Of a stretch of 64,000 bases of DNA, positions 17,790 to 52,789 are shown in pieces; positions within the stretch are counted from its first letter, which is position 1; each line of letters opens with the position of its first letter. This DNA is from Clostridia bacterium (GTDB taxonomy: Bacteria > Bacillota > Clostridia > UBA1212): positions 59,025 to 123,024 of the forward strand of contig JAFSVU010000004.1 of assembly GCA_017444825.1 (NCBI GenBank), given 5' to 3'. The position numbers and the translations under genes were made by a program. The notes under the pieces are model-generated. The model saw nothing but the letters and a program-made list of their open reading frames with translations. It searched no databases and was not told the DNA's origin.

Positions 17790-17819
17790 GCGAACCGTTA
17801 TGATGGTCACAGATAACCG

Positions 17820-37433: not shown

Positions 37434-38903
37434 TCAAAAACTACTCTTCGAAGGCCCCATGTACTCAAGGCAGAGCATGGTCAGGTCGTCGAACTGCTCG
37501 GCACTTTTAACGAAGGCGTCCACGTCGCTGCGCACGTTGGCGAGGATGGTCTCGGGGTGCGCTTCCGGGTCCTTGTTCAGAGCCTCCAGCATCCTGTCCA
37601 AACCAAAAAGGTTCTTGTTGGCGTCCGTAGCCTCGGGCACACCGTCGGTGTAAAGGAAGAGCTTTGAGCCGGGCTCCATGTTGAGCTCGTATTCCTTGTA
37701 GCGGGCCTGGTCCATTCCGCCGATGACGAAGCCGTGCTTGTCCTTGACGATCTCAAAGGAGCCGTCAGCATGCTTCATGACGGGGTACTCGTGGCCTGCA
37801 TTGGCGGCGGTAAGCCTGCCTGTCGAGATCTCGAGGATGCCCAGCCAGACCGTCACGAACATCTCCTCACGGTTGTTGGCGCAGATGGCGGCATTGGCGT
37901 CGGTGAGTATCCGGGCGGGTGACTTTCCCAGCATCGCGTTGTTCGCAAGTATGATCTTCGAGGCCATCATAAACAGTGCCGCAGGAACGCCCTTTCCGGA
38001 CACGTCAGCCATAACTATGCAGAGATGGTCGTCGTCCACAAGGAAAAAGTCGTAGAAGTCGCCTCCTACCTCCTTGGCGGGGGCCATTGACGCGTAAACG
38101 TCGAAATCCGAGCGCTCGGGGAAAGCCGGGAAAATGCTGGGCAACATGTGCGCCTGGATGTTCGAAGCCATGTTGAGCTCCGCCTCGATGCGGGATGTCT
38201 CCAGCTTCTGCTGCTCGTACTTCTCGTTCTGGTTCTTGACGATGACCGAAAACATGAACACCGCGGCGCAGACAGTCGCAACAATGATGAACTGGATGCC
38301 GTAGGAGAAGCTCTGGATGAGTATCGCCAATACCGGCGCGACCATATATATCCAAAAGGCAATCCTGACTCTCCGGGAGATGTTCTTTCTGTGCCTAACC
38401 AGAAGCACCATGTCGAGCACCAGCATGAGTATAGGCACCAGGTTTGAGAGCAGGTAAAGGCCCGAACGGTGATAGACATTGGCGTCGTCGAAACGGTAGA
38501 TCAGGTCAAAGGGCCAGCCGATCAGCAGTATCACCGCGTGGAGGCCTGTCAGCGCAAGCAGCGAAATCTGAATGGGCTTGGCGAATTTTTCGGCCCTGGA
38601 GACTGTGAGAACGAGCAATGACATCATAAGCGCCATAAAGCCCGCCGCCAGCATCTCCGTGAAAGTGACTGTGTAAAGCGCCACCCTGATCCCGCCGCCC
38701 GGCCTGCCGTCCATGAGTTCCCTGGCGAGGTGTGCCGAGATGTACAGCATGATGAGGCCGAAGAAGACCTGGAAATAGATCCTGACCTCTTTTCTGATGT
38801 GAGTGGAGGAGGAGATGTGCAGGATGCAAAGCACGCACACGCCAATGCCTGCCGCAATGAATAATATATTGATCAAATTGACTGCAGAAAGCTGAAAATC
38901 CAT
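37434..38903 (-). CDS. Membrane-bound PP2C/SpoIIE-family serine phosphatase
   Basis: The N-terminal half has ~8 TM segments. The C-terminal half carries GGDFYDFF and ADVSGKGVPAALFM. RBS GGAG. Confidence 0.85.
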   Translation of the reverse strand: MDFQLSAVNLINILFIAAGIGVCVLCILHISSSTHIRKEVRIYFQVFFGLIMLYISAHLARELMDGRPGGGIRVALYTVTFTEMLAAGFMALMMSLLVLTVSRAEKFAKPIQISLLALTGLHAVILLIGWPFDLIYRFDDANVYHRSGLYLLSNLVPILMLVLDMVLLVRHRKNISRRVRIAFWIYMVAPVLAILIQSFSYGIQFIIVATVCAAVFMFSVIVKNQNEKYEQQKLETSRIEAELNMASNIQAHMLPSIFPAFPERSDFDVYASMAPAKEVGGDFYDFFLVDDDHLCIVMADVSGKGVPAALFMMASKIILANNAMLGKSPARILTDANAAICANNREEMFVTVWLGILEISTGRLTAANAGHEYPVMKHADGSFEIVKDKHGFVIGGMDQARYKEYELNMEPGSKLFLYTDGVPEATDANKNLFGLDRMLEALNKDPEAHPETILANVRSDVDAFVKSAEQFDDLTMLCLEYMGPSKSSF

Positions 38904-39002
38904 GTTGCGCTCCTGTTTACGGTTTGGTTTTTGTTATTCTACAGTTTTTGAGAGGGTTTTTCAATGGCGGAGAAAAGGTTTGTCACAAAATGCCGGCATA
39001 TT

Positions 39003-39203
39003 TCAGAAGCTCCCTCTTTTCGCCAGCAGTTCATATTTCTCCCTGATCAGGATCCGCTCCGCCATCTCTTTAACTTTCAGCTTGTCAGTCTTTTTCAGGC
39101 CTCTCATCAGATAAGCTAACGAGTCAGACTGGCCAAAAGAATCCCGAGTTTCTTTCAGTTCTACGATGTCTTTACTGGATTTTACTGTATTAAACTCTTT
39201 CAT
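39003..39203 (-). CDS. Hypothetical 66-aa protein downstream of the TIR-NACHT-LRR gene
   Basis: The ATG at 39203 lies 6 nt after a perfect GGAGG. A TATAAT (39257-39262, minus) lies upstream. No recognisable motif. Confidence 0.5.
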   Translation of the reverse strand: MKEFNTVKSSKDIVELKETRDSFGQSDSLAYLMRGLKKTDKLKVKEMAERILIREKYELLAKRGSF

Positions 39204-39321
39204 AATGATCCTCCTTTGTTGCCAACAGTTTTGTTGGTTTTTAACATATAGCTGCAATTATACTCTGATTTTGACAACTTTAATCTTGAGCAGTGTTTGT
39301 TGTTTTTCAAATTAACGCACT

Positions 39322-42300
39322 TCAACTGCCGGTGTAGATATAGATGATTTCTGCGTTGGCAAGGCATTCGTTTCCGGTTTCTACGTCAATACTCTGCCAC
39401 TGTTCTAACGATCCTTGGTAAAAGACTGACTGAAGCCCGATGCAATCCCAGAACGCTCCATGTCCGATTTCTGTAATTCCGGCATGCATTCCCACTCGTT
39501 TAAGCCCCGTGCAATATGAAAATGTTCTTGCGCTGATTACTTTTACTTTGCATGGTATGTCTATCTCTGTAAGCCCGGTGCAACCTGCAAATGCCCAGTC
39601 TCCGATTTCGGTAACACTGTCGGGTATTACTAAGCTTGTAAGTGCGGCGCAACCTGCAAATGCCCTATTCCCGATCTCGGTAACACTGTCGGGTATGGTT
39701 ACATTTTCAAGTTCTTTGCAACCGCGGAATGCACTGTCTCCGATTTTAGTCACACTGCCATCATCAGGTATAATACTATTTTTGCACCCTACAACCAGCT
39801 CTTTCGTATCCGCCTTTATAATACAATCATTTCGTTCATAATATCTCTCTGTTTTGGAATCAACAGATTGGACAGTTATTTTTTTGAGTTCCGTACAAAT
39901 CGAGAAGGCTCCGTATCCTATCTCAGACACACCGGCAGGTATGTCTATACTCGTAAGGCCTGTACATCCCGTGAATGCATTGGCTCCGATTTCCGTTCCG
40001 TCACCGGTTATCGCCAAAGTTATAAGCCCCGTGCAATTCTTGAACGCAAATTCCCAGATTTTTGTATCATCACTGTTTATCTCTAAACCGGTAAGTCCGG
40101 TACAGCCTTCAAACGCACTTTTCCCAATTTCTTTGATTTTCTCTGTTATTTGAATGTTGCTAAGCCCGGAACAACCGCTGAATGCGCTGTCACCGATCTT
40201 GGTCACACTGCCGTCATCAGGTATAATGCTATTTTTGCATCCGACTATCAACTCTTTCGTATCAGCCTTTATGATGCAATTATTTCGGCTATAGTATTTC
40301 CCAATTCCGGAGTTTACAGAATGAACCGTTAGTTTTTCGATTTCATTACAGCCAGCGAAAGCGCCGTATTCAATCTTCGTCACACTGTCAGGTATGTCCA
40401 AACTTGTAAGGCCGGTGCAACCGCTGAATGCACTTTGTCCGATTTCTGTTCCGCTGCCGGTTATCTCCACATTCGTAAGTTCATTGCAGTCGCTGAATGC
40501 AAAACCTCCGATTTTTGTTTTGTTGCCTGTTATCTCTATGCTCGTAAGGCCGGTGCAACCGCGGTATGCAGCATTAGTTATTTCTGTCCCGTTGCCGGTT
40601 ATTTTAACATCTGTGAGTGCTTTGTTATTACTGAAGGCTTCTTCTCCGATTCTTGTTCCGTTTCCGGTTATTTCTATGTGCTTAAGTCCTGTTGTGAATT
40701 CTGTATCAAAGCTCCAGCAGCCGAATGCTCTTCTTCCGATTTCGGTATTATTACCGTGTATTGTTATTTTTGTAAGGCTTCTGCAACCGCTTAATGCTGC
40801 TTCTCCAATTTTCGTAACCCTATCATGAATACCTATGCACGAGAGATTTGTGCAGCAAAAAAACGCATGTTCTCCGATTATTGTAACGGATCGGGGTATG
40901 TATATGCTCGTAAGACTTGTACGACCGCGGAAGGCAGATTCTTCAATTTGAGTGCCATTGCTTGTAATTCTATAAAGGCCTTTAAAAGTCGTGCACGAAG
41001 CTGCGTCCTTCATTTTTTCTACACAATCTTTAAAGCCAATCGCCTTTTTCCTGTCTTCGTATATTAAGGCCAGTTCAGAATGCATATTGTCGGAGAATAC
41101 AGCTTTCAGTTCTTTTAAAAGTTCTTTCCTCACATAGTTGTATTTCTTTAACCCCTTATGAAGATCAATTTTGTTCTCATTGCTCGTCTCTATATTGTCA
41201 AAAGAATCCTGAAGTATTTTATAAATTGCAGGAAAATAGAATAACTCGGTGTAAGGATTTGTCCCTTTCGCACATTTCCATGCAGGCTTGCCAAAACTTG
41301 AGTCCCATTTTTTCAATATTATGCTTCCGTCAAGATCCTCCACAGATACCGGAATTCGTTTGCGTTCTTTGAGGGAAAGCCCCGTAAGAATTCCTTCACA
41401 GCCTCGATCCATCATTCTTTCCAATATTTGGTTAATAGCCCGGTTTTTAATATGTGGCTTTTCAAACTGTGAAACCGCATCGCAAATAAGATCGTAATCA
41501 GGCTCATTTACCGACTGGAATCCCTCTACCAAAGACTCTGCGATATAGCTCTCCTTTGAATACTTGTCGCTGAGGAGAAGCAACGTCTTTTTAACGCTTT
41601 TCCAGTACTCAGAGTCAGATTTGGCTACTTCAAAGTCTTTGATCCTGACCGATTTATTTTTTATTGTTAGCCAAAGATATAGAGCATCTGAACTGGTTTC
41701 TCCATTTTTGGAATTGTCACCTTTGGCATTATTCTTGATCTCAGTCCACAAAAAATATGCAGCATAAGCCTCGGCAAAAAACTCGTGACTGAAACCGGTT
41801 TCATTACAAAGCTTGCTTTCCTCGAAAAACCGGTTAAACTTTTCCTTATACTTCGAATAATAATCCTCGTTAACTTCTTCGGCGCACCTTATAAGCATAT
41901 GCGAATCGATTTTCGGAAAAGGTTTATTGGCATCTTTCGCCCTGTAGATTTTATACGAAAGACATCCCAGGATCGATTTTATATCATCCTCGTTTATAAA
42001 CTCCCACCCGGTAGGGTTTTTATGCAATTCCCGATATATCACACTGTTTATGGCATACTCCACAGCGTCAAAACGAGTCTCCGGGAGGGAATCCTCCACG
42101 AGGGGATCGTAGGCGGTGAAGATCGTGAATAAAAAGAACGGGTTTCGCGATATGTCCTTGTAATCTTTGACCGTTTGCTCTTTTTCGTTTATTTTTTCGA
42201 AAAAAGTATCTTTTTTCTCATCCGATTCATGCCTGACATTGGCGAGCTTCAAAATATACTTGTCTCTCTTTTCATTGTCAAAATATTGGACCTTGTATCT

Positions 42301-43581
42301 TCTGACGAGAGTCATTGGCGTTTGGTCAATCATCATGTCGTTTACTGACGCCAATCGTTTCTGCCCCGGCCTTGAAGTAAACAATATATGCACTCCGGCG
42401 GTTTTGTGGTTCGAAATGAGGACGCTGTTGATCTTATCGACCAGAATATCCATGGTGCTTGCCGGGACCTCATCCATCGCGTCGAAAATGAATAAAGGCC
42501 TGCAGTTTCTCAGAACAGCTTCAAAACCCGGCTGGCTGAGGTCAATCCCCTTAAAGAGCGCTCTATAGAAGTCTTCGTCATTGGCGAGACTTTGGATAAA
42601 ATCCTTGCACTCGTAATACATCGGGAAAAACTCATTCTTTGAGAAACCGAGTTTTTTCGTTCTTTCGCCAAGGTCTATGCACAGTTTTTTGACCGCCAGC
42701 GACTTTCCCTGACCTGCATCGCCAACCAGCACCGCATACTTGTCTCTCATCAGCTGCTCCCTAAGATTTTCATCCTCGAACAGCTCTTTAGGAAGTTCTT
42801 CATGCTTTTCCCGGGCGGTCTTTATTTCTTCATCCGTATGAAGTCTTTCCAGCGTCACCGGCACATAGGTTCCCTCAATCGTAAGACCCGAATCGTCAAA
42901 CCCTTCTCCCGGAATGAATATTGCGTTTCGCTTTTTCTTCTGCGCATCAAGTACGTCGGCATAGTAACCGACCTCTGATTTTTCAAACAGCCTGTCAAAA
43001 ATAACGTCGGCGAAACTGCTCAAAGCTTCATCGTCAATATCCAGTGTCTTTAATTTCACGCCCTGGGACCTTCTGAGATAAAGCTTTACCTTTTCAAGAT
43101 CCTCTTTGGCAACCTCTTCGGCCTTTTTCGAAAGTGCCTCGTCAAAATGGTCTTCGAGATCAGCCCCGCTCACAAGTTTAAGGAGCCGCTCCGCTTCATC
43201 CTTCGGATAATCTAACTTCTGAGTTGTTGAGTTGGTTTTAAAATCCAGAAATACAGGTACGACTCTTGCTCCGTTTTCGAGTGCCGTCAAATATTCAAAC
43301 AGGCAAAAGTCTTTGTCGAGATCGCGGTTGCTTTCGGGGCCGAAGCTGATATAACTATCGGTGACCACAGGCATGAAAACATACGCACCACCGGCACTTT
43401 TTCTGAGATTTTCCACAAAATCACCGCTGCGCAATTCATTCTTATCGTAAAAAACATGAAGTCCTGTCTCAGCTTTTATTCTATTTATAAAGGAATTGAA
43501 AACCTCCTCCGTAGCGGCTTCCTTGTCGCCCCAGCGGTAGCTCAGAAATATATGGTATTGTCTGTCGTCAGTTGAGCTCAT
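39322..43581 (-). CDS. TIR-NACHT(STAND NTPase)-LRR (BspA/LRR_5-type) protein, 1419 aa; candidate NLR-like defence protein
   Basis: TIR elements are YHIFLSYRWGD, HVFYD and DFCLFEY. Walker A is VLVGDAGQGKS (nt 42700-42723), Walker B is LFIFDAMDEV (nt 42466-42495), and the NACHT-like ILFTSRP follows. Residues ~875-1419 are tandem repeats of the ..VTKIGDSAFSGCTGLTSI.IP.. type. Confidence 0.9.
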   Translation of the reverse strand: MSSTDDRQYHIFLSYRWGDKEAATEEVFNSFINRIKAETGLHVFYDKNELRSGDFVENLRKSAGGAYVFMPVVTDSYISFGPESNRDLDKDFCLFEYLTALENGARVVPVFLDFKTNSTTQKLDYPKDEAERLLKLVSGADLEDHFDEALSKKAEEVAKEDLEKVKLYLRRSQGVKLKTLDIDDEALSSFADVIFDRLFEKSEVGYYADVLDAQKKKRNAIFIPGEGFDDSGLTIEGTYVPVTLERLHTDEEIKTAREKHEELPKELFEDENLREQLMRDKYAVLVGDAGQGKSLAVKKLCIDLGERTKKLGFSKNEFFPMYYECKDFIQSLANDEDFYRALFKGIDLSQPGFEAVLRNCRPLFIFDAMDEVPASTMDILVDKINSVLISNHKTAGVHILFTSRPGQKRLASVNDMMIDQTPMTLVRRYKVQYFDNEKRDKYILKLANVRHESDEKKDTFFEKINEKEQTVKDYKDISRNPFFLFTIFTAYDPLVEDSLPETRFDAVEYAINSVIYRELHKNPTGWEFINEDDIKSILGCLSYKIYRAKDANKPFPKIDSHMLIRCAEEVNEDYYSKYKEKFNRFFEESKLCNETGFSHEFFAEAYAAYFLWTEIKNNAKGDNSKNGETSSDALYLWLTIKNKSVRIKDFEVAKSDSEYWKSVKKTLLLLSDKYSKESYIAESLVEGFQSVNEPDYDLICDAVSQFEKPHIKNRAINQILERMMDRGCEGILTGLSLKERKRIPVSVEDLDGSIILKKWDSSFGKPAWKCAKGTNPYTELFYFPAIYKILQDSFDNIETSNENKIDLHKGLKKYNYVRKELLKELKAVFSDNMHSELALIYEDRKKAIGFKDCVEKMKDAASCTTFKGLYRITSNGTQIEESAFRGRTSLTSIYIPRSVTIIGEHAFFCCTNLSCIGIHDRVTKIGEAALSGCRSLTKITIHGNNTEIGRRAFGCWSFDTEFTTGLKHIEITGNGTRIGEEAFSNNKALTDVKITGNGTEITNAAYRGCTGLTSIEITGNKTKIGGFAFSDCNELTNVEITGSGTEIGQSAFSGCTGLTSLDIPDSVTKIEYGAFAGCNEIEKLTVHSVNSGIGKYYSRNNCIIKADTKELIVGCKNSIIPDDGSVTKIGDSAFSGCSGLSNIQITEKIKEIGKSAFEGCTGLTGLEINSDDTKIWEFAFKNCTGLITLAITGDGTEIGANAFTGCTGLTSIDIPAGVSEIGYGAFSICTELKKITVQSVDSKTERYYERNDCIIKADTKELVVGCKNSIIPDDGSVTKIGDSAFRGCKELENVTIPDSVTEIGNRAFAGCAALTSLVIPDSVTEIGDWAFAGCTGLTEIDIPCKVKVISARTFSYCTGLKRVGMHAGITEIGHGAFWDCIGLQSVFYQGSLEQWQSIDVETGNECLANAEIIYIYTGS

Positions 43582-43715
43582 TGGTCCCTCGAAATGTTGT
43601 TACCTTATTTACTTGTCGTTAAAAGACATCATTATCAACATGTTCAATTGTAGCATAATCTCTTATTGAAGAATACTCCTATTTTAAGCAAAGGCAGAGA
43701 CTTAGACTTCCTGTC

Positions 43716-43807
43716 AGTTTACCCGCGTTAAAAAAACGTGTCAATATCAAAAATGAAGTTTCTCGCCTTGGTGTCGACCATAGCCGACAGTAAAACGCAA
43801 AAACTTC
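43716..43807 (-). promoter_or_regulatory. Promoter plus conserved upstream module R1 (in front of the TIR-NACHT-LRR gene)
   Basis: On the minus strand, TTGACA (43739-43744) is followed by 17 nt and TAAACT (43716-43721). The 70 nt from the -35 upward (43738-43807) match 46897-46966 at 61/70 positions by manual alignment. GTGTCAAT-like boxes lie at 43738 and 43771, 33 bp apart. Confidence 0.55.
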
Positions 43808-43847
43808 ATTCAGGTTTCAAAATACACATCCGCAAGAAAGGTTTCTA

Positions 43848-44045
43848 TTATTTCTTCCGCCTCCCGAAAATCGGTGAAACGATATCGGCTCTTCCCGAAC
43901 CAACGTCAACCGCAACGTCATCCGCGACCTTTACCCTCGTTTTTCCGTTTTTACCAAGAATAATGCCACCCGAGAATTCATATTCGACTTCGCCGGTCCT
44001 CCAATTCAGGACAGGCTTAAAAGGATCGTTTTTATCGTTTTTCAT
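43848..44045 (-). CDS. Hypothetical 65-aa protein
   Basis: The ORF has an AAGGAA RBS-like sequence before its ATG. No motif was recognised. Confidence 0.35.
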   Translation of the reverse strand: MKNDKNDPFKPVLNWRTGEVEYEFSGGIILGKNGKTRVKVADDVAVDVGSGRADIVSPIFGRRKK

Positions 44046-44096
44046 TTTCCTTCATCAATCAGTTCTTCTATCTTTTTCATTGCTTCTTCTTTATCC

Positions 44097-44444
44097 TTAC
44101 TGCCGCGGATCATTTCCAGGATCAGCTTCAAAACTTATCCACATGGCGGGCCTCACACCATATTCCCAGTCACAGTACATCCCGCTTGGACGAACTCCGC
44201 CATCATCAGCAACAGTTGCCGCAGGAAAACAGCGGCCATTCGGAACTGCTCCGGAAGACCGTAACCACCACCGACAGTGAGAGTTTCCGTAGGGCTTATA
44301 TTCGACTCCCTCATCTGTCTCAACACCTTTCATTTTAGCATTGGCCGTAGGCAGACACAATCTGGCTTCATTGCTTTCAAAAAGAGTTTTGGCCTCTTTG
44401 ACGCTGAGAAGAAACACTTTATCGATCGTGTCGCTGTTCGACAC
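44097..44444 (-). pseudogene. 5'-truncated paralogue of the 46181-46840 gene (C-terminal WWLRS/DUF6273-like domain only)
   Basis: 44137-44436 aligns without gaps to 46197-46496. Homology stops abruptly at 44436/46496. Only a GTG is available as a start, there is no RBS, and about 105 N-terminal codons are missing. Confidence 0.65.
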
Positions 44445-44546
44445 CTAAACAGATTTTTAATGTTTTTTTGAAAAACCAGCGGTTTTATCCGAACATCTCT
44501 TGATTTGCATCCCACTTCAAGTGCTCATAAGGCCTAGGAATTACGC

Positions 44547-45203
44547 TTATCTTATCTTCCACACGAATGTCAAGAGTGCATAGTCTGAACCGCAATCGAT
44601 GTTATCTTTGTCAAATACTATGGTATTATAGATATATTCATCACACGTCAAGTCGGTCTTATCGCTAAAGTACTTTTCATTTTTGAATGAGTCAAGTACC
44701 TCTTGCTTCTTTTTATTCTCAGTCCACACATCAGCAAGGATAACACCATATATGCTGAAATTCTCTAACCAATCAAGCTTGGCAAATCTCTTGTCCTTTT
44801 CGATGTCCTTTGCAAACTGTTTTATTCTTATGATGTCTTTGGTAATAGCGTTACTTTTTCCGGTTGTGTTCGTAAAGCGTTTCGACTCTATGACAAACAG
44901 GTTTTTTTCTGTTTTATCAATTATGATACAATCGAGGTGGTTGTTCTTTTTCTCGTCAATGAAATCAGCCGCACCTGGCTGTTCATTCTTATCGTCTTGA
45001 TCCGCCTCTTTCTTTGAAAACTGTAGCTCGTACCAGCTTAAAACATCTCTATTGGGAAAGGCATCTTTATATGCTTCCGCAAAATTTACAGTCAGATTAC
45101 GCTCTTGAAGACCGGTTGAACCGATTGAAGGATAGAAAGTCGTCAGAATGCGATTATATCGATTTCTGTAGTTTTCAAAGACTGCGTTTGTCAATATTTC
45201 CAT
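44547..45203 (-). CDS. Predicted PD-(D/E)xK-fold nuclease (hypothetical, 218 aa)
   Basis: Start set at ATG 45203, after GAGGGAAAA; the longer ORF would need a TTG start. The motif LDCIIID-x12-FVIESKR matches a D...ExK pattern, preceded by conserved acidic residues. Confidence 0.6.
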   Translation of the reverse strand: MEILTNAVFENYRNRYNRILTTFYPSIGSTGLQERNLTVNFAEAYKDAFPNRDVLSWYELQFSKKEADQDDKNEQPGAADFIDEKKNNHLDCIIIDKTEKNLFVIESKRFTNTTGKSNAITKDIIRIKQFAKDIEKDKRFAKLDWLENFSIYGVILADVWTENKKKQEVLDSFKNEKYFSDKTDLTCDEYIYNTIVFDKDNIDCGSDYALLTFVWKIR

Positions 45204-45238
45204 TTTTCCCTCGTGTTTACTCAAGTTTTTAGTGTAGT

Positions 45239-46102
45239 TCAATTCATGTTATAACCATTTTCTTTAGTTTGGAACACTTCTTTCCAATAACTTTCACGAG
45301 CTATAATAATATGAGAATCCGTGTTTTTGTTAAATGTCTCTATTATAGTAAACTCAAAATTTTCTTGGAAATACGATTCTCCAACGCGATTGTATAATTC
45401 AATAAGAGCTTTATTCCTTCCGTGCATTGAATCTATGTAGTCGGACCACCTTTGAAGTATACCTTCTTCTCCATACGCCGAACCAATGTAAAACTTACTT
45501 TCTTTTTTATCTGTTAAACAATAGACACCTTTAACACCTTGAAGAGCAGATCTATAATCTGCGTACTTATGCCCTTCAAGAATGTGTTTTAAGGTGGAGT
45601 AAGAAAGATGAACACTATCAAAACCTTGGAATTTGATAGGCTCATAGACGTTTGGAAGAATCTCGGAAACTTCTGCCTCGTCTATTACTGTTGCCAAGTC
45701 AAAAATGTAACGCGCAAATTTATTGCCTTTATGATAGCTGATTATCAATCTGCCTATCAGCCCCTGATAAGCTTCTAACTCAACATGGCCACATGCCCCA
45801 CTATTATTTCTATCCGGAATAGAAGTTATTTCGCCCGCCGAAACCAACAACCACTTATCATCATGTTCTTGAAGCCTTACAAAGCCAAAGCACCATTGGC
45901 CAACTCTTGTGAAGTTTCTATTCCTTCCGTGCACTCCTTGGTGTGAGTGATATGTAAAATCAACATTCCTGTTTTGCTCGTCACTTTCATACCAAATCTC
46001 GAAATGGGTTTTCCCTCCCCATTGCATGTTCAAACCTATTTTTGAATTTGCGATTTGTTCGCTGTTCAAGTGCAAGATATCGTTGAGCATTATTTTTGTC
46101 AT
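45239..46102 (-). CDS. GIY-YIG nuclease-domain protein with uncharacterised ~190-aa N-terminal domain
   Basis: The C-terminal segment GVYCLTDKKESKFYIGSAYGEEGILQRWSDY...ARESYWKEVF...GYN fits GIY-x10-YIG, Arg, Glu and Asn. RBS AGGAG lies 7 nt before the ATG. Confidence 0.8.
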   Translation of the reverse strand: MTKIMLNDILHLNSEQIANSKIGLNMQWGGKTHFEIWYESDEQNRNVDFTYHSHQGVHGRNRNFTRVGQWCFGFVRLQEHDDKWLLVSAGEITSIPDRNNSGACGHVELEAYQGLIGRLIISYHKGNKFARYIFDLATVIDEAEVSEILPNVYEPIKFQGFDSVHLSYSTLKHILEGHKYADYRSALQGVKGVYCLTDKKESKFYIGSAYGEEGILQRWSDYIDSMHGRNKALIELYNRVGESYFQENFEFTIIETFNKNTDSHIIIARESYWKEVFQTKENGYNMN

Positions 46103-46180
46103 AATATTCTCCTTGTTCTATTTTAAGGCAAAAGCACATTCATCGCTTGTTGCTTTCTCGTTTAGTAAGCGATAAAAAGC

Positions 46181-46840
46181 TTACGATTCAAGAGATATCC
46201 ACATGGCAGGTCGCACAGCAAATTCCCAATCACAGTACATTCCGCTTGGGCGAACTCCACCATCATCAGCAACAGTTGCGGCAGGAAAACAACGACCGTT
46301 CGGAACGACTCCGGAAGACCGTAACCACCACAGACAATGAGGGTTTTCGTAGGGCTTATATTCGTCGCCCTCATCTGTCTCAACACCTTTCATTTTAGCA
46401 TAAGCCGTAGGCAGACACAATCTGGCTTCATTGCTTTCAAAAAGAGTTTTGGCCTCTTTGACGCTGAGAAGAAACACTTTATCGATCGTGTCGCTGCCTG
46501 GCTCTATCGTTGTACCAAAATACGAGTCATAAATCGGTTTTTCCTCTACTTTTAAGGCAGTACTGAGAATTCTCTTCTGCTCAGCATCATTAAAGGCAAC
46601 CCGAAAAAAGTCGTTGTTAAGCCACTCGCGGAGTGAACATCTCTCCCAAGGTGCATTTTCGATTGCTTCATCATTGTACTGTTTGCAATCAAGAGCATAT
46701 TCGCTTAAGACAAGGGCCTTGCTATTCTCAACCCTTAGAACACGCCAAACAAGTTCCCGTATATCGCCTTCAGCCGTCGTTGGATATCGGCCGAAAGTGA
46801 TTGTGCGTTTTCCGTTTTCGTCAGTTTTAAAGTAGTCCAT
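46181..46840 (-). CDS. Hypothetical protein with C-terminal Cys/Trp-rich 'WWLRS' domain (DUF6273-like)
   Basis: The 219-aa protein carries ...CLWWLRSSGVVPNGRCFPAATVADDGGVRPSGMYCDWEFAVRPAMWI. RBS GAGGG. The promoter module R2 lies directly upstream. Confidence 0.7.
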   Translation of the reverse strand: MDYFKTDENGKRTITFGRYPTTAEGDIRELVWRVLRVENSKALVLSEYALDCKQYNDEAIENAPWERCSLREWLNNDFFRVAFNDAEQKRILSTALKVEEKPIYDSYFGTTIEPGSDTIDKVFLLSVKEAKTLFESNEARLCLPTAYAKMKGVETDEGDEYKPYENPHCLWWLRSSGVVPNGRCFPAATVADDGGVRPSGMYCDWEFAVRPAMWISLES

Positions 46841-46874
46841 TGCGGTTATCCCTCGTCTTTTTTTATCTATTTAC

Positions 46875-46966
46875 AGTTTATGAAAGCACAGAATTGGTGT
46901 CAATATCAAAAATGAAGTTTTCTGCGTTGGTGTCAATCATGACCGACAATAAAACGCAAAAACTTC
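46875..46966 (-). promoter_or_regulatory. Promoter plus conserved upstream module R2 (in front of 46181-46840 and the nuclease pair)
   Basis: On the minus strand, TTGACA (46898-46903) is followed by 17 nt and TAAACT (46875-46880). GTGTCAAT boxes lie at 46897 and 46930. It is the homologue of R1, exactly 3159 nt away. Confidence 0.55.
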
Positions 46967-47026
46967 GTTAAATTTCACCGATCTAATTACAACTATCTTT
47001 TATCAGATATCGCAGACCCGCATTGA

Positions 47027-47683
47027 TCATTTATACACATCTTCCGGAATGCCCGCTCTGATGTATCTCTCAAAGGGACTGTCAGTTTCCCAGTTCCAAC
47101 CTTCTGGCATGCTATCTTTTGAGATCCGGTTTACAAGGCTGTCTTCTTCCGTTGTCAAAAACACCTGTGGTATATTGGCGCTCATGTACTCAATGTACCT
47201 TAAGGCATTATCAGCATTTTTCTTTTCGATATATTCAAGCAGCTTTAATTTCGAATAATTGACGGGGACAGGGTGCTCATAAACACCGCTTTTTATCTTC
47301 CTTTTTCTCTCTTTTTGCTTTTGTGAAAGTCTATGAATTCTTCTGAATGTTTGTCCTTGCTGCTTTGTGAGCCAGGATAGAAGTTCCTCGCTGAAAGCCT
47401 CATCGCCGTACCGGATCAAAAGGAGAACGTACTCCTTGGCGATTTCGACAACAGACAGACTCATGTTACCCGGCCGAACCTTTGGCTCACCGTAGAACGG
47501 CATATCAATCTTTTTTGATAGATCACAGCGCAATCTGTAAACTAACTCTTCAGAAGCGCCTACGTCTCTCAGAAAAGTGTTCACCCTTTCCTTAAAGCTT
47601 TGAACTTCAGGGCTGTTTCTTCTTGCTTCAAGTTTTTTCGTATAAACGGTATTTGGCACACTGTCACCATCCAGGTCGGTCAT
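47027..47683 (-). CDS. Hypothetical 218-aa protein translationally coupled to the WYL regulator
   Basis: The ATG at 47683 overlaps the WYL gene stop (ATGA at 47680-47683). The centre is basic (KQKERKRKIK). The C-terminal segment YEHPVPVN...LTTEEDSLVN is of unknown meaning. Confidence 0.65.
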   Translation of the reverse strand: MTDLDGDSVPNTVYTKKLEARRNSPEVQSFKERVNTFLRDVGASEELVYRLRCDLSKKIDMPFYGEPKVRPGNMSLSVVEIAKEYVLLLIRYGDEAFSEELLSWLTKQQGQTFRRIHRLSQKQKERKRKIKSGVYEHPVPVNYSKLKLLEYIEKKNADNALRYIEYMSANIPQVFLTTEEDSLVNRISKDSMPEGWNWETDSPFERYIRAGIPEDVYK

Positions 47684-48660
47684 TCCACAGCTTCCCACGC
47701 CTGCCGCACAAACTCCCTGTACTCCTCCACGACCTCGTCCGGCCCGGTCACCTTCACCTTGCCGCCAAAACCCACGATCCAGCAGAAGAGCACGTTGTTC
47801 ACAGCCACCTCGACCGTAGCCTCAAACGTGCCGTCGCCCCGCAGGAACGTGTCCACCTTCTCGCCAAACCGGTCCACAATTGCATCCATCACCGAATTGT
47901 CGCAGATAAGCCTCACCCGCTTGCGCTCGGAATTAAACATGTGCGGCATTGTGTTGATGTGTCGCTCCAGGTCAAACCCCTTCTCCAGCGGGATCGCGTC
48001 ATCCTGCAAAATCTCCGGCGGCGCCACCATCCTGTCAACGCGAAAACTCGTCAAGCCCTCATACTTCTCATACCGGCCGATAACGTAGTAAAAATCGCCG
48101 TTCCACACCAGTCTGTAGGGACTGAAGCAATACCTGTACCCGTCGTGGCGCAGCTTCCTCTGCTTCTTCTCGTTGTACTCAAAATACTGGAACGAGATCT
48201 GCTTCTTTTGGTTTATCGCATCGTTGACCGCCTCAATGATCCCCAGCACTTTCTTGTTGGTCCCCTTGATCCGCCTCTCGACCGAAACGTTTCGAACCAG
48301 CTTTTCTGACCCGTGCTTTCCCGCAAGCGCAGTGATCTTCGCGATCAGCTTCTTGCTCTGAGTCGCCGGTATAAATTTGCACGACGCCAATGAATCGATC
48401 ATCAGCCTCATCTCCGCATCGTCAAAGTACCTTTTCCCGAAAAAGTAGCGGTTTTGCGTCGACTTGGTCATCTGAATGTCGAAGCCAAGCTCCTTCAGCA
48501 TCTCGATATCAGCGCCAATGGTCGTCCTGTGCGTAGTCATACCATACTCGTCCTCGAGTATGCGCATCAGCTGCGCCGTCGTCAGAAAATGCTCCGCATC
48601 GGTTCGCTCGAAAAGTATTCTGGCAAGCAGCCAGGGTCGAAGTTTTGCGTCAATGTCCAT
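47680..48660 (-). CDS. HTH-WYL-WCX transcriptional regulator (BrxR/CapW/PafBC-like)
   Basis: The N-terminal wHTH reads FLTTAQLMRILEDEYGMTTHRTTIGADIEMLKELGF. The WYL core is YRLVWNGDFYYVIGRYEKYEGLTSFRVDRM. A C-terminal extension follows. RBS AGGAGAGG is strong. Confidence 0.88.
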   Translation of the reverse strand: MDIDAKLRPWLLARILFERTDAEHFLTTAQLMRILEDEYGMTTHRTTIGADIEMLKELGFDIQMTKSTQNRYFFGKRYFDDAEMRLMIDSLASCKFIPATQSKKLIAKITALAGKHGSEKLVRNVSVERRIKGTNKKVLGIIEAVNDAINQKKQISFQYFEYNEKKQRKLRHDGYRYCFSPYRLVWNGDFYYVIGRYEKYEGLTSFRVDRMVAPPEILQDDAIPLEKGFDLERHINTMPHMFNSERKRVRLICDNSVMDAIVDRFGEKVDTFLRGDGTFEATVEVAVNNVLFCWIVGFGGKVKVTGPDEVVEEYREFVRQAWEAVE

Positions 48661-48746
48661 AATACCTCTCCTTTTAAGGCACTATCTTGGAAACGGCTTT
48701 AACCGATCTGTCGACTTATTCATATCCTTATCATTTTCTATCTATC

Positions 48747-48986
48747 TTAGATTTTGTAAAAAGTAACTCGCTTATTAATCAGATCGGGATCCATCCTATA
48801 CCCGCAGCCTAAAACTCTCGTTGGAAATCCGGCTTTTCTGCCAGAGGGACTCCAATATACTTTGTACTTATATGCCGAATTGCACAATCTGGACCCGATA
48901 ATGTCTTCAATTTCCGCAAAAGAAAGCGTAAAACTGTTTTGGGTCTGATGTCTTAAGTAATAGATGAAGTTATCAAATTTGTTCAT
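48747..48986 (-). CDS. Hypothetical 79-aa protein
   Basis: A strong RBS AGGAGG lies 6 nt before the ATG. No motif was recognised. Confidence 0.6.
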   Translation of the reverse strand: MNKFDNFIYYLRHQTQNSFTLSFAEIEDIIGSRLCNSAYKYKVYWSPSGRKAGFPTRVLGCGYRMDPDLINKRVTFYKI

Positions 48987-49020
48987 TTTGTTCCTCCTCT
49001 TTAATGTTTAGCCTTTTGTT

Positions 49021-49572
49021 TTATTCCGGCAGCATCGCTATCAAAGCGTCCCCGTTTTCCTTGAGCCAGGCATATTTTTCCCTATAATCAGGAAACACAC
49101 GAAGGACCTCATTGTAAAACCTTTTTGAGTGGTTCATCTCTTTCCGGTGGCAAAGTTCGTGGACCACCACGCTGTCAAGCACCTCCGGCGGCGCCAGCAT
49201 AAGCAAGCAGTTGAAATTCAGGTTGCCCTTGCTGCTGCAGCTTCCCCACCTTGATTTCTGCCGGCGTATCGTGATCCTTCCGTAAGTCACACCCACAAGC
49301 GGTGCATAGTGCGCCACGCGCTCCTGAATAACCTCTTTCGCACGACTCGCCAATGCATTTATCTCTTCCTGCGTCAGCTTCCGAACGGATGCCTTTGCCT
49401 GCTCTTTTGCCTGAGCCTTCGCCAGGTGGGTTTCGATCCACTTTTTGTTTTTCAGCATGAAGCGATCGATTTCCTTGTTTGTCGCAAAAAACGGCGCACG
49501 GATGATCAGCTTCCCGCCTCTTATCTCTGCTCCCAGCGTTTTTCGGTTGCTTCGGATCACTTCAAATTCCAT
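49021..49572 (-). CDS. YgjP-like (DUF45/M48-related) zinc metallopeptidase
   Basis: The motif HELCHRKEMNHSKRFY (HExxH...H) is present. Start set at ATG 49572, after GAGG. This family is commonly linked to Type I R-M loci. Confidence 0.85.
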   Translation of the reverse strand: MEFEVIRSNRKTLGAEIRGGKLIIRAPFFATNKEIDRFMLKNKKWIETHLAKAQAKEQAKASVRKLTQEEINALASRAKEVIQERVAHYAPLVGVTYGRITIRRQKSRWGSCSSKGNLNFNCLLMLAPPEVLDSVVVHELCHRKEMNHSKRFYNEVLRVFPDYREKYAWLKENGDALIAMLPE

Positions 49573-49756
49573 CTGTTGCCTCATTATCTCCGTTGCCGTT
49601 ATTATCAGGCGGCTGGGGACTACTTTTCTGATGCAATTCATTTTGTTTCAGTTTCATGATACTAAGGAGCTGTTTCATTAGCTCTTCATCCTCTGGCGTA
49701 ATATCAAAATCGTCATCTGGTTCCTCTATTAATGCTTCAATCTTCCTCATCTTCAT
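49562..49756 (-). CDS. Possible small acidic protein (64 aa)
   Basis: The ORF has no convincing RBS. It overlaps both neighbours. Its composition is strongly acidic. Confidence 0.3.
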   Translation of the reverse strand: MKMRKIEALIEEPDDDFDITPEDEELMKQLLSIMKLKQNELHQKSSPQPPDNNGNGDNEATDGI

Positions 49757-49955
49757 TATTTACATATATTTCGCCGTTTGGACCATAAAACTCTTCATGG
49801 TCTTTCCCGTCATAGTGGTTATAAAAATGATGATTGTCTTTTATCTTCTTCTTGCATTTTGTGCAAACATCCCAATATCCCCAGTCATCCTCAAATCCAG
49901 TAGTTACTGACGATACTGTTTTACATGTACAGAAATCGTTCTCGTTTTCTTTCAT
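49737..49955 (-). CDS. Small Cys-rich (CxC...CxxC) putative zinc-ribbon protein with acidic tail (72 aa)
   Basis: RBS GGAGG lies 9 nt before the ATG. The protein has FCTCKT...VCTKCKKK and a C-terminal NNEDEED. Confidence 0.55.
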   Translation of the reverse strand: MKENENDFCTCKTVSSVTTGFEDDWGYWDVCTKCKKKIKDNHHFYNHYDGKDHEEFYGPNGEIYVNNEDEED

Positions 49956-49968
49956 AGTAAAAGTCCTC

Positions 49969-50373
49969 CTATTTGACTTTATTTATCTTGTCTTTTCCAA
50001 GCAAATTTGTGTGGCTTTGTAAAAACAACGCGATTATAATAGAAACAACAGAGATTATTATAACGCACCATTCCGGGGCTCCAATACCTGAAATAATCAC
50101 ACCTACTAGGAATGCAATTACACTCATGACCCATTTTCCAAATTTCGAGTCATTGAATATAATAAAAGCTGCAATACCCCATAACAAGTCACATAAAAGC
50201 GACAATGGCGTAATGATAAACCCGGAGAGAATCTCTCCAAATACCAGTTTTCCCAGATTTGTTTCTGCAAGCCAAGCTAGCGCCTTAACAAACTTCAAGC
50301 AGCCTTCCGTACCAAATTGGAAAACTCTTGCAATAATTTGGAATATTGTTTCTAGAATGTTTGCTTTAAACAC
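49969..50373 (-). CDS. Hypothetical small membrane protein (3-4 TM)
   Basis: The ORF is hydrophobic and 134 aa long. It has a GTG start after a purine-rich GGGAAGAGAG and overlaps the upstream ORF by 8 nt. Confidence 0.5.
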   Translation of the reverse strand: MFKANILETIFQIIARVFQFGTEGCLKFVKALAWLAETNLGKLVFGEILSGFIITPLSLLCDLLWGIAAFIIFNDSKFGKWVMSVIAFLVGVIISGIGAPEWCVIIISVVSIIIALFLQSHTNLLGKDKINKVK

Positions 50374-50674
50374 CTCTCTTCCCTTGTTCTTTTTCGTCCT
50401 CTATACGGACCTCTTTGTTACGTTTCGAATCATATTCGATCCTTGCATTAAGATATTTTACAACCGCATCTGGATATGAGTTTGCATATTTTGTGTGGGT
50501 TTTTCTATGCGCATCTCTCAAACACAAACTGACCACACTGCGACTATTTCGGTCTTTCATGGCTTCAACCCACTCTGGTTTATTCTCGCAGGCATAAGTC
50601 ATCATTTCATAGTACGAAAACATCTGTTTTTCATTACAATATTCTAATATTTCTTTTATAATTTTAGTGTCCAT
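50366..50674 (-). CDS. Hypothetical 102-aa protein
   Basis: An ORF in AT-rich DNA with a weak RBS and no motif. Confidence 0.45.
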   Translation of the reverse strand: MDTKIIKEILEYCNEKQMFSYYEMMTYACENKPEWVEAMKDRNSRSVVSLCLRDAHRKTHTKYANSYPDAVVKYLNARIEYDSKRNKEVRIEDEKEQGKRGV

Positions 50675-50713
50675 CTATTCTACGGAATAAGTTCTGTCAA
50701 AGCAGCCCCCATA

Positions 50714-52102
50714 TTACACCTCAACTTCATTGGCAAAAGTACCATGCCGGATATACTTTGTCCCCTTATTTTTGCCAATTCTGTCAAGAATCATTTGCTG
50801 TACAAGTGATCCCAAAATCTCCTTTGTCCGAGTCGCTTTCAACCCGAGAATCGTCTGGGCTTCAGCGTTGGTGATCGAGCCGTTTTTGGCAATATAAGCC
50901 AGTATTTTTTCAATTATATCGGCACTTATCGGCGTTATATCGGCACTTATCGGCGTTTTACCGCTGCCGATATCCGTATTACCTGCTTCGGTGCTGCGGT
51001 AAAAGATGACTACGAAGCCGGATTTCAACTGATTAAAATCGTATTTTACGCTTGCGGAAGTACATGCGTCGTGAATACGCTTCAGTCCGGAGCCGAAACT
51101 CTCGACATCCTTGGAATAATATAGAGTTCTTGCGATTACAGGATTCCTTCGAATAGGTCTTTCAGAATGTTCAATAAAATCTTTCGGAGTGTATCCCTTA
51201 GGAAACTGTCCGGGATTGTAGATTTCAATTCTATCCTTGAAAATCGCGACTTCGTTGCTTTGACCGCTGCCGTGATCTTTATGGCAGAACGAGTTGAGGA
51301 GTGCCTCTCTTACAGCGTCCGCCGGTATTTCCGGAATTTCTTTTCTCTGGATGCTTCCATCGAATTCCACACGCCAGTGAATGTTATTCATGATATATTT
51401 TTCGGCAGCGTCAACAAGCCGGATGATCGGGCCATGCACTCTCTGAATATCAATAAAGGTGACTCGTTCATTTGTGGCAAAAATAGCCATCTGAACATCT
51501 TGGACGATATCGTCCGCAAAAAGCACTTTTCCGGCGTTGGTAAGGTGATCGACATCTGACAATCCGAGCTTTTTAAGCACCGTAGCTTTATCAGTGTAAT
51601 CAAAGCTGATCCTGCCTGCGGCCTTGGCTTTTTCAACGTATTGCCGCAGCAGTTTTTCATCTGCGTCGTCAACAAGCTTGTTTGAGGTATAATTCTCCCA
51701 CTGATTTCCTTCAGAAGCATTGTCGCGTATATAGTTCGCCAGTTCCTGCGGAGTCATCGTTAAATCTTCGTCGGCAACACGTATTTTAGCGACCCCTCTG
51801 GCAAAATACGGAGTATGATCACCTTCGAATTTAACGTGAACGCATTCTTTTCCGTCAATGACTACCCGGTTAATTTCCGGAAATATACGCGGTTCTATCA
51901 TGCTCCCAATTTTCTGACTGATATCGCGCAGCGTCTGTTCAGTGACGATCTGACCCACGACATCACCATTCGGCTTTATACCAAAGTAGATTTCGCCAGC
52001 CTGATGCTTATTCAACATTGCGCTGATCGAGTTAATCGCCGCATCAAGTTCCGCAGTTGATTGCTTGAACTCCAGCGTCTCTGTTTCAATTCCAAATTTC
52101 AT
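50714..52102 (-). CDS. AlbA_2 (Schlafen-like 'divergent AAA') + HATPase_c_4-like + C-terminal wHTH protein
   Basis: The N-terminus ETETLEFKQS...GEIYFGIKPNGDVVG is typical of AlbA_2. The C-terminal part is HTH-like (ITNAEAQTILGLKATRTKEILGSLV). RBS GAGGGG. Confidence 0.85.
   Translation of the reverse strand: MKFGIETETLEFKQSTAELDAAINSISAMLNKHQAGEIYFGIKPNGDVVGQIVTEQTLRDISQKIGSMIEPRIFPEINRVVIDGKECVHVKFEGDHTPYFARGVAKIRVADEDLTMTPQELANYIRDNASEGNQWENYTSNKLVDDADEKLLRQYVEKAKAAGRISFDYTDKATVLKKLGLSDVDHLTNAGKVLFADDIVQDVQMAIFATNERVTFIDIQRVHGPIIRLVDAAEKYIMNNIHWRVEFDGSIQRKEIPEIPADAVREALLNSFCHKDHGSGQSNEVAIFKDRIEIYNPGQFPKGYTPKDFIEHSERPIRRNPVIARTLYYSKDVESFGSGLKRIHDACTSASVKYDFNQLKSGFVVIFYRSTEAGNTDIGSGKTPISADITPISADIIEKILAYIAKNGSITNAEAQTILGLKATRTKEILGSLVQQMILDRIGKNKGTKYIRHGTFANEVEV
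50915..50956. repeat. Perfect 21-bp tandem duplication inside the AlbA_2 gene
   Basis: The unit tatatcggcacttatcggcgt occurs twice (50915-50935 and 50936-50956). This duplicates the heptapeptide ADITPIS. Confidence 0.9.
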
Positions 52103-52125
52103 AGATTACCCCTCGATCTCCCTAA

Positions 52126-52789
52126 TTATTGCGTCGATCTCTGCCCGGAGGACCGCTTGATACGGCAGAGGTTGTACGTAGTGATGTTGATTTCCTGACC
52201 GTAGAAACCGGTGCGGATGGCGTCTTTGCCAAGTACTTTTTCGGCTTTTAAAAGCAGGGAGCCGGAACCGCAGGCCGGATCGTACACCTTGTTGATCTCT
52301 TTTTTTCCAACCGTTCCGAGGCGCGTAAGCAGTTCAGACACGTCAGCGGGAGTAAAGAACTCGCCGCCGGATTTTCCTGCGTTGGAGGCATACATCGTCA
52401 TCAAATATTCGTATGCGTCACCGAAGGCATCAATATCGTGATGTTTGACGTCGCCCAGGTTCATATTGACGATGCCGTCAAGAAGCTTCACAAGCTTTTC
52501 ATTGCGCTTTGCGACAGTTGCACCAAGTTTTTGTTAGAGTTGACATCATAGTCATCAAAAAGACCCGCAAAGCTGTTTTCAGATTCACTTCCCTTGGCAG
52601 ACTCTTCAATGTGCAGAAACACTCTTTCAAGCGTTTCATTAAGGTTTTCGGATATGTAACGTTAAAACATAGTGCCCAGCACATAGTTCTTAAATCCCAG
52701 CCGTCAACAGCTCCGCGCAATTCGTCAGCAATCGCCCAAATCGCACGATGCAGTTCTTCACGTTCCTGTTCCTTCTTCAAATCAGCCAT
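52126..52789 (-). pseudogene. hsdM: Decayed Type I R-M methyltransferase gene (hsdM remnant)
   Basis: The N-terminus reads MADLKKEQEREELHRAIWAIADELRGAVDGWD. A -1 frameshift follows at ~52690. An in-frame TAA sits within GTMF*RYISENL. A second frameshift lies near 52495. The remainder reads GDAYEYLM..GGEFFTP..DPACGSGSLL..YGQEIN..NLCRI, and homology ends at ~52158, before the NPPF motif. Confidence 0.85.

Follow-up and report, generated by a model that had tools for sequence, protein, structure and literature searches.

The window analysed here is a 64-kb stretch of contig JAFSVU010000004.1 (assembly GCA_017444825.1) from a Clostridia bacterium. On its minus strand lies a gene whose product joins a TIR domain, a NACHT nucleotide-binding domain (NBD) and an array of BspA-type leucine-rich repeats (LRRs) of the LRR_5 family in a single polypeptide chain. 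The gene is the longest open reading frame (ORF) of its neighbourhood and opens with the first start codon that follows a stop in its frame. An initial annotation had proposed this ORF together with a ribosome-binding site (RBS), GAGGGA, and a set of motifs, each of which sits at the residues assigned to it. In the TIR part these are YHIFLSYRWGD (9-19), HVFYD (42-46), YVFMPVVTDSY (67-77) and DFCLFEYLTAL (91-101, including E96), and in the NACHT part VLVGDAGQGKS (284-294, including K293), LFIFDAMDEV (363-372) and ILFTSRP (399-405). Positions of these and of the surrounding features are collected in Table 1.

Table 1 Features of the window, with positions counted from its first nucleotide
Feature	Position	Strand	Basis or remark
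TIR-NACHT-LRR_5 gene (single chain)	39322..43581	-	1419 codons + stop; GC (guanine plus cytosine) content 0.431
TIR domain, residues ~7-140	43162..43563	-	Pfam TIR_2 11-126; family profile; Foldseek
Predicted catalytic Glu E96 codon	43294-43296	-	aligned with SARM1 E642
Helical linker between TIR and NACHT, residues ~141-282	42736..43161	-	AlphaFold2 (AF2) helices 148-171, 184-198, 205-220; low confidence 216-247; no family
NACHT nucleotide-binding domain, residues 283-445	42247..42735	-	Pfam; hhalign to bNACHT23; invariant motifs
Walker A Lys K293 codon	42703-42705	-	within GDAGQGKS
Helical/winged-helix region after the NBD, residues 446-870	40972..42246	-	AF2; Foldseek columns to NLRC4/RPP1
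BspA-type LRR_5 solenoid, residues 875-1419	39325..40959	-	Pfam; repeats; AF2; Foldseek
Shine-Dalgarno-like GAGGGA	43585..43590	-	3 bases before ATG
Promoter-like TTGACA-17-TAAACT	43716..43744	-	10/12 positions; ~135 nt upstream of ATG; consensus match only
Motif TTTTAACG-N3-GTAAA, copy 1	43718..43733	-	overlaps spacer and -10 hexamer of promoter-like site
Motif TTTTAACG-N4-GTAAA, copy 2	43608..43624	-	~20 nt upstream of RBS
66-aa ORF	39003-39203	-	AAAGGAGG RBS; low-GC part; called as gene on 6 public contigs
SpoIIE-type phosphatase	37434-38903		with the 918-aa surface protein, points to Gram-positive Clostridia host
231-aa ORF without family	44547-45242	-	overlaps end of GIY-YIG gene by 4 nt; may be co-transcribed
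UzuA (Uzume) homologue, GIY-YIG	45239-46102	-	PADLOC UzuA E=1.9e-46
WYL-WCX regulator	47680-48660	-	PADLOC WYL 9.7e-31; type controlling defence operons
YgjP-like metallopeptidase	49021-49641		in low-GC island; family often linked to Type I restriction-modification
Schlafen AlbA_2 + HATPase_c_4 (+ winged helix-turn-helix) protein	50714-52102	-	domain scan
HsdM-like Type I methyltransferase fragments	52126-52825	-	at least 2 ORFs (121 aa, 108 aa); DPACGSGSLL S-adenosylmethionine-binding motif readable
RmrA-like helix-turn-helix + M78-peptidase protein	52980-54017	-	E=4e-44; RosmerTA antitoxin-like component; just past island upstream edge
Predicted surface protein, 918 aa	54424-57180	-	SpaA/prealbumin-like and Listeria-Bacteroides repeats; C-terminal membrane anchor; just outside island

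Three domains in one chain

Taken alone, the Pfam match to TIR_2 over residues 11-126 is marginal (29.1 bits versus a cut-off of 28), and a search with the single sequence matched the TIR domains of Roq1, L6 and SARM1 weakly, with E ~0.007-0.01. A profile built from the N-termini of 14 family sequences matched the TIR domains of C. elegans TIR-1 and human SARM1 with E=1.3e-14 to 5e-12, followed by L6, AtTIR, Roq1, the CRISPR-associated Cat1 and AbTIR. Foldseek with an 870-aa AlphaFold model of the protein retrieved plant TIR domains at a target-normalised template-modelling (TM) score of ~0.6, as well as the TIR domains of SARM1 and SPARTA; over the plant and SARM1 domains the scores span 0.5-0.67, as fits the flavodoxin-like fold of TIR domains. 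The TIR assignment is secured by the matches of the family profile to SARM1/TIR-1 and those of Foldseek to plant TIR domains.

E96 falls on the catalytic glutamate of SARM1, E642 (chain 7knq in full-length numbering, residues 587-661 aligned to 39-115 of the query). It is invariant in 14/14 diverse members of the family and always stands four residues after an aromatic one ([FYW]xxxE). We infer from this that the domain is a SARM1-like TIR, predicted to cleave nicotinamide adenine dinucleotide (NAD+).

The central domain scores as NACHT in Pfam with 32.7 bits against a cut-off of 26.7 (24-59 bits in relatives, 58.8 at the top), and the Pfam scan of the protein gave no NB-ARC match at E<=1. As Koonin and Aravind are said to have defined them in 2000, the signatures of NACHT are a Walker A of the form GxxGxGK[ST], a Walker B followed by D-[GAS]-h-D-E, and a TSRP sensor-1. 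The protein carries all of them: Walker A GDAGQGKS, the Walker B and acidic stretch IFDAMDE (D367/D370/E371), which follows D-[GAS]-h-D-E, and sensor 1 LFTSRPG (R404), which holds TSRP, are invariant across 9 sequences that share 34-41% identity. When a family profile of residues 230-870 was aligned by hhalign with the published fragment of bNACHT23, a protein that protects E. coli from the phages T2, T5 and T6 (Kibby et al., bioRxiv 10.1101/2022.07.19.500537, Table S2), 261 columns matched with a probability of 97.2% and E=2.8e-11. In the Foldseek search with the 870-aa model the top match was RPP1 (E=1e-5, 645 columns); NLRC4 (E=4e-3, 583 columns) and Avs4 (E=1.2e-2, probability 0.63) were also found.

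Between NACHT and the LRRs lies a stretch of 430 aa that is predicted to be helical, which agrees with the helical spacer of ~450 aa suggested earlier. Within residues 446-870 a GFxHEF motif is invariant (H599, codon 41785-41787). The extended motif GFxHEF..YAAY resembles the winged-helix His motif of animal NLRs, a likeness given here as a lead only. Two insertions in this region are found in the protein of the window and not in its homologues; they cover residues ~621-654 (41620-41721) and ~744-773 (41263-41352), where the predicted local distance difference test (pLDDT) of the model stays below 50.

The C-terminal array matches Pfam LRR_5 in four stretches with E=6.9e-111. Its units follow a strict period of 69 nt (23 aa), with 19 canonical units and two units of 59 aa that contain insertions, close to the more than 20 tandem repeats first counted. 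An AF2 model of residues 862-1419 (pLDDT 81.6, predicted TM-score (pTM) 0.80) shows the tandem units forming a solenoid. Its best Foldseek match is the Faecalibacterium protein 4gt6 (E=3.5e-15), together with 4fs7 from Bacteroides, 4h09 from Eubacterium and the pneumococcal PcpA 4cp6 (to 9e-10); Toll-like receptors rank after these LRR_5 surface proteins. At the DNA level, 39719-40018 and 40172-40471 are 77% identical at a spacing of 453 nt. This segmental duplication of a block of ~151 aa, which includes a long 59-aa unit, is evidence of recent repeat expansion.

The protein's N-terminus is polar, the maximal hydropathy over 19 residues is 1.25, and the chain is free of signal peptides, membrane segments and wall anchors. 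As there is neither an export signal nor a hydrophobic segment, the LRR array is predicted to be cytoplasmic. In NCBIfam the protein matches LRR adhesins only, and these only partially (83 bits versus cut-offs of 1250-1750). All three domains thus score above their Pfam cut-offs and the predicted folds match RPP1, NLRC4 and LRR_5 surface proteins, as had been anticipated for this architecture.

The sequence upstream of the gene had been described as a promoter with a duplicated operator-like module. The promoter-like site is there as a consensus match. The duplication is real as sequence: TTTTAACG-N3/4-GTAAA occurs in two copies upstream of the gene and nowhere else in the 64 kb, where 0.01 are expected. 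This count was made post hoc, and as the two copies themselves supplied the pattern, its uniqueness is not an independent test. Conservation did not follow, since the motif is absent from 13/13 homologue loci fetched. No link was found between the promoter motif and the WYL regulator encoded in the island.

A rare family and its neighbourhoods

When residues 1-866 were used for a word-indexed search of 5.8 billion clusters, only eight relatives came up, at 34-37% identity, all with NACHT and LRR_5 and most with TIR_2. An exhaustive HMMER search with a profile of the NACHT-helical region against 1.84 billion representatives gave 23 matches at E<=1e-30, 100 at <=1e-10 and 2289 at <=1e-3; the 15 best new matches were scanned, and 10 of them show the order TIR_2-NACHT-LRR_5. 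The three domains occur together in at least 15 relatives. The family is rare.

Several members depart from the common architecture. P0019 has TIR_2 and LRR_5, with NACHT below the threshold used, P0023 shows NACHT only, and P0011, P0021, P0024 and P0025 come without a recognised N-terminal domain. In P0028 a calcineurin-like phosphoesterase (Metallophos) takes the place of TIR. This exchange, along with the other N-termini of P0021, P0024 and P0025, suggests that effectors are swapped on a shared NACHT-LRR_5 chassis.

The close relatives in reference genomes all come from metagenome-assembled genomes (MAGs) of rumen and gut Clostridia, nearly all in TIR-NACHT-LRR_5 order. The MAGs belong to uncultured Ruminococcus (four, one with two copies), a Clostridia bacterium from sheep omasum and another uncultured Clostridia bacterium. 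A relative from Christensenellaceae lacks TIR, and the match to a SIR2-NNH1-NACHT-LRR protein of Thalassomonas is confined to NACHT. Metagenomes from JGI added two further loci. Among phage records and IMG/VR there were no relatives, which neither supports nor contradicts a role in defence, and on plasmids only distant NACHT proteins of Acaryochloris matched. As a side observation, the MAG RUG11832 harbours two paralogous TIR-NACHT(-LRR) genes (L010 and L011). At locus L015 two neighbouring ORFs (5116-6741 and 6748-10122, plus strand) together make up one distant relative with 24% identity; the split may reflect a frameshift, a pseudogene or an assembly error.

The clearest picture of the evolution of these proteins comes from pairs of close relatives. 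P0008 and P0009 share 96-100% identity over residues 1-700 and 35-51% in their LRRs, while the TIR domains of P0017 and P0018 agree at 98% and their LRRs at 22-37%; misregistration of repeats may inflate the measured LRR divergence somewhat. The arrays are also of very different lengths; the proteins span 823 to 1858 aa. Near-identical TIR-NACHT parts joined to divergent LRRs are what one would expect of a fast-evolving sensor. Diversification of the LRRs by a diversity-generating retroelement was considered, and no reverse transcriptase was found among the scanned neighbours. A conserved effector and switch, fast-changing repeats and the occasional replacement of the effector are together, as far as sequence can tell, the pattern of an immune receptor.

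What surrounds the homologues differs at every locus, and the flanking genes often lie on the opposite strand. Such unrelated flanks indicate that the gene behaves as a single-gene unit. Homologues had been expected to lie beside defence genes, and this was borne out in a small sample of 12 loci and 67 neighbour proteins, taken without a formal background. BrxA, BrxB and BrxC, a Schlafen/HATPase_c_4 protein and an integrase-like gene lie near the homologue at L005, and a 729-aa double-TIR protein (757-2943, minus strand) and a Card1/PD-DExK-like protein at L011. At L007 a TIR_2 protein (5102-5984, plus strand) follows directly downstream. Further neighbours are Sel1 and RuvB_N/Mrr_cat proteins (L004), an OLD/AriA-like ATPase (L015), and a transposase, Fic and an integrase (L001). 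At L005 we also noted a 1205-aa protein (14474-18088, plus strand) without a Pfam or PADLOC match, which sits directly downstream of the homologue and before the integrase-like gene.

In the window itself, GC content is 0.431 over 38900-52900 versus 0.52 over 7001-38900, and the TIR-NACHT-LRR_5 gene stands at the edge of the low-GC stretch. The low GC points to horizontal acquisition of the island. The initial annotation had spoken of a mostly AT-rich island with nucleases, a WYL regulator and a dead Type I restriction-modification gene, and this description holds: the drop in GC, the GIY-YIG protein, the WYL-WCX regulator and the HsdM fragments are all found. The RmrA-like gene abuts these fragments, with no obvious ORF for an RmrT partner seen. 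There are no tRNA genes in the window, no direct or inverted repeats of at least 13 nt that join the two GC boundaries, and no integrase in the scanned ORFs of the island. The pair of Schlafen AlbA_2 and HATPase_c_4 domains occurs in two independent loci, the island of the window and L005 (3018-4715, minus strand), there beside BREX.

Three small ORFs lie close to the gene. The 66-aa ORF downstream had been proposed as a possible partner on account of its RBS. The RBS is good, and the proposal fails on the comparison: a tblastn search with 39006-39203 against all homologue loci returned nothing, the protein forms a singleton cluster at 90%, it has no Pfam match, and no co-oriented small ORF recurs downstream of the homologues. 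Upstream, two co-oriented ORFs separate the gene from the Uzume pair, one of 65 aa (43848-44045, minus strand), which has no Pfam match, and one of 115 aa (44097-44444, minus strand).

How the protein might work

The protein is probably a stand-alone, cytoplasmic immune receptor of the bNACHT type that resides on a horizontally acquired defence island. Both the architecture and its reading as a defence receptor are well founded, given the Pfam scores above cut-off, the profiles, the Foldseek matches and the neighbourhoods. What the sequences and models show is the identity and order of the domains, the conserved catalytic motifs, the predicted cytoplasmic location, the single-gene organisation without a conserved partner, the defence context and the fast-evolving LRRs. 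At rest, by analogy with NLRC4 and bNACHT, the NACHT domain would be closed with a nucleotide bound and would hold the protein monomeric and inactive. The C-terminal LRR solenoid may serve as the sensor, either by binding a phage protein or by sensing a change that the phage induces. NACHT might then open and oligomerise, which would depend on K293, D367/D370/E371 and R404, residues whose motifs are in place and whose activity is presumed. Such an oligomer could unite the SARM1-like TIR domains into composite NADase sites around E96. Cleavage of NAD+ would arrest the growth of the infected cell or kill it and so prevent the spread of the phage, that is, act by abortive infection.

A more specific version of this idea, which we put forward tentatively, is that rumen and gut Clostridia independently assembled a complete TIR-NOD-LRR receptor, in which a surface-type BspA LRR was recruited as a cytoplasmic, rapidly diversifying sensor that binds phage proteins directly and triggers a SARM1-like destruction of NAD+. 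If this were true, no earlier immune receptor of bacteria would have had the full domain logic of a plant TNL (TIR, nucleotide-binding domain and LRR), and it would be the first case of LRR_5 shown to be an intracellular pattern-recognition module.

Several observations weigh against a bNACHT-type receptor that depletes NAD+. We infer defence, NADase activity and ligand sensing alike, and the sample of neighbourhoods is limited in size and lacks a formal background. PADLOC v2 gave no significant model match for the protein (the best, PDC-S66 at 1.5e-4, covers residues 3-55 only), so that the protein belongs to none of the systems that PADLOC v2 models. The NACHT-helical region has no meaningful sequence match among solved structures in the PDB, be it with the single sequence or with the profile. 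This means that the NACHT domain here is divergent and that its assignment rests on Pfam, on hhalign to bNACHT23 and on Foldseek. The 870-aa AF2 model is only moderate (pLDDT 67, pTM 0.50), and over the whole chain it reaches TM-scores of just 0.15-0.22 to RPP1 and NLRC4, as expected from a moderate model of a multi-domain protein. Lastly, TIR domains can yield signalling nucleotides rather than deplete NAD+, two outcomes that sequence cannot separate.

This last point opens the main rival explanation, an unlikely one in our view, in which the receptor is the same and its TIR domain works as a Thoeris-like signal generator: a cyclic ADP-ribose isomer or a nucleotide derived from ADP-ribose would activate an effector encoded elsewhere in the genome. 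The TIR profile does match plant TIRs, Cat1 and cyclases of the AbTIR type, and extra TIR proteins lie near the homologues at L007 and L011. Yet the best matches are SARM1 and TIR-1, which consume NAD+, and no gene for a ThsA-like, SLOG, Macro, SAVED or STING receptor is conserved beside the gene, whose neighbours change from locus to locus; these two points are why we rate it lower. Single-chain STAND proteins with enzymatic effectors also usually act directly (Kibby et al., bioRxiv 10.1101/2022.07.19.500537). The switch could also serve conflicts or regulation unrelated to phages, such as exclusion of plasmids or of integrative and conjugative elements, discrimination of kin or of self from non-self, or dormancy under stress, with LRRs that sense a cellular or bacterial ligand. 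Non-immune STAND regulators are indeed interspersed with defence clades (bioRxiv 10.64898/2026.01.04.697583), and the integrases, transposase and Fic among the neighbours imply that the gene travels with mobile elements. However, the effector is a TIR domain with an intact catalytic glutamate and not a DNA-binding domain, known defence systems (BREX, Uzume, RmrA-like) recur as neighbours, and a hypervariable sensor on a conserved chassis is typical of immune receptors. We therefore see this second possibility as quite doubtful.

The remaining explanations are far less probable. LRR_5 is typical of surface proteins, the best structural matches of the array are gut surface LRR proteins and PcpA, and NCBIfam reports partial matches to adhesins; one might thus suspect a BspA-like adhesin that is secreted or sits on the surface, or a virulence factor directed at the host with a TIR domain of the TcpB/BtpA type, in which the NTPase is incidental. 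Against this, the protein shows neither a signal peptide nor a membrane segment or wall anchor, its adhesin scores lie far below the cut-offs, and its LRRs follow C-terminally on a STAND ATPase that needs cytoplasmic nucleotide. The hosts, moreover, are rumen and gut commensals, and we regard this explanation as very improbable. Equally remote is the idea that the gene is a decaying, non-functional remnant in a degraded island, to which the fragmented HsdM gene of the island and the split relative at L015 might hint: the reading frame of 4.26 kb is intact, the catalytic motifs are invariant across relatives of 34-40% identity, and a near-identical copy exists on other contigs.

If the protein is indeed a bNACHT-type receptor, it would extend the known bacterial relatives of NLRs to Gram-positive anaerobes of the rumen and gut. 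It would further offer a compact bacterial TIR-NOD-LRR model for how the binding of a ligand to LRRs is coupled to the activation of a TIR NADase, and would mean that the BspA-type LRR_5 repeat can be used as an intracellular sensor. Pairs found in nature whose TIR-NACHT parts are nearly the same and whose LRRs diverge are ready-made material for swaps of specificity. The PADLOC v2 models miss the family, which leaves a gap in annotation. Overall, this is a well-defined experimental candidate and not a new principle.

Relation to known receptors

The initial annotation regarded the protein as a candidate for an undescribed defence system. This part does not stand, as descriptions of NACHT proteins from bacteria that carry TIR effectors or LRR sensors date from 2022-23. 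Kibby et al. (bioRxiv 10.1101/2022.07.19.500537) reported that bacterial NACHT proteins defend against phages, with TIR among their N-terminal effectors and LRRs among their C-terminal sensors, and the set they tested includes the LRR-bearing bNACHT16. The narrower statement, that no characterised bacterial protein has exactly TIR, NACHT and a BspA-type LRR, agrees with the literature searched. "TIR-NACHT-LRR" occurs in no paper found there, nothing relevant connects BspA or LRR_5 with STAND or NACHT, and a string search of Table S1 of Kibby et al., which is not exhaustive, found neither a TIR_2+NACHT+LRR architecture nor an LRR_5/BspA sensor, nor any entry from Ruminococcus. More generally, surveys report that prokaryotic STAND sensors are mainly TPR, WD40 and FGE-sulfatase domains and that combinations of NB with LRR are uncommon in prokaryotes (PMC7145615; bioRxiv 10.64898/2026.01.04.697583).

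Among defence systems with TIR or STAND components, Thoeris combines a ThsB-type TIR gene with a ThsA-type effector gene, and neither the protein nor its island neighbours show a PADLOC match to ThsA or ThsB. The Avs proteins are closer in kind, being STAND receptors of a single chain that recognise phage proteins and whose N-terminal effectors can be exchanged, and Avs4 is among the Foldseek matches. They differ in that their sensors are mostly TPR-like helical repeats (bioRxiv 10.64898/2026.01.04.697583) instead of LRRs and that their NTPase lies outside the NACHT clade; no model for Avs1-5 (AVAST) appears among the PADLOC matches at E<=1.

For the effector, SARM1 and TIR-1 are the best profile matches, with E642 and E96 aligned in similar KD[WFY]xxxE[IY]xxA motifs. 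SARM1 is controlled by its ARM and SAM domains and forms an octamer via the latter, whereas the TIR domain here is fused to NACHT-LRR, and the aromatic residue four positions before the glutamate is F or Y, not W, in the closest members. For the sensor, the BspA-like LRR_5 surface proteins of the gut (4gt6, 4fs7, 4h09, 4cp6) share the 23-aa repeat family and the predicted solenoid fold. They are exported, while the array described here carries no signal for export and is joined to the C-terminal side of a cytoplasmic ATPase.

At the level of the whole chain, the animal NLRs (NLRC4, NLRP3, NOD2) likewise combine NACHT with C-terminal LRRs, and NLRC4 was matched by Foldseek. They carry a CARD or PYD adaptor in place of an enzymatic TIR domain, and their LRRs are of the ribonuclease-inhibitor and not of the BspA type. 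The plant TNLs RPP1 and ROQ1 have the same order of TIR, STAND NTPase and LRR from the N- to the C-terminus, and RPP1 is the top Foldseek match. Their NTPase is however NB-ARC, of the AP-ATPase clade, and they have canonical plant LRRs and a C-JID, whereas the protein here has LRR_5 and an NTPase that scores as NACHT. The resemblance is for this reason architectural only, and is most simply seen as an independent assembly of domains.

The closest comparison is with the bNACHT proteins. In them, too, one gene found in defence islands encodes an effector at the N-terminus, NACHT in the centre and a sensor at the C-terminus, and the protein of the window has this tripartite layout, with TIR_2 (11-126), a STAND NTPase of the NACHT clade (283-445) and LRR_5 (~875-1419); its NACHT region is homologous to that of the phage-protective bNACHT23. 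The proteins tested came from Enterobacteriaceae, in contrast to the rumen and gut Clostridia of this clade, and the sensor here is the BspA-type 23-aa LRR otherwise known from surface proteins. We would class the family, judging by its sequences, as a variant of known receptors: an uncharacterised, rare and Clostridia-restricted bNACHT clade that appears to pair a SARM1-like TIR domain with a BspA-type LRR sensor.

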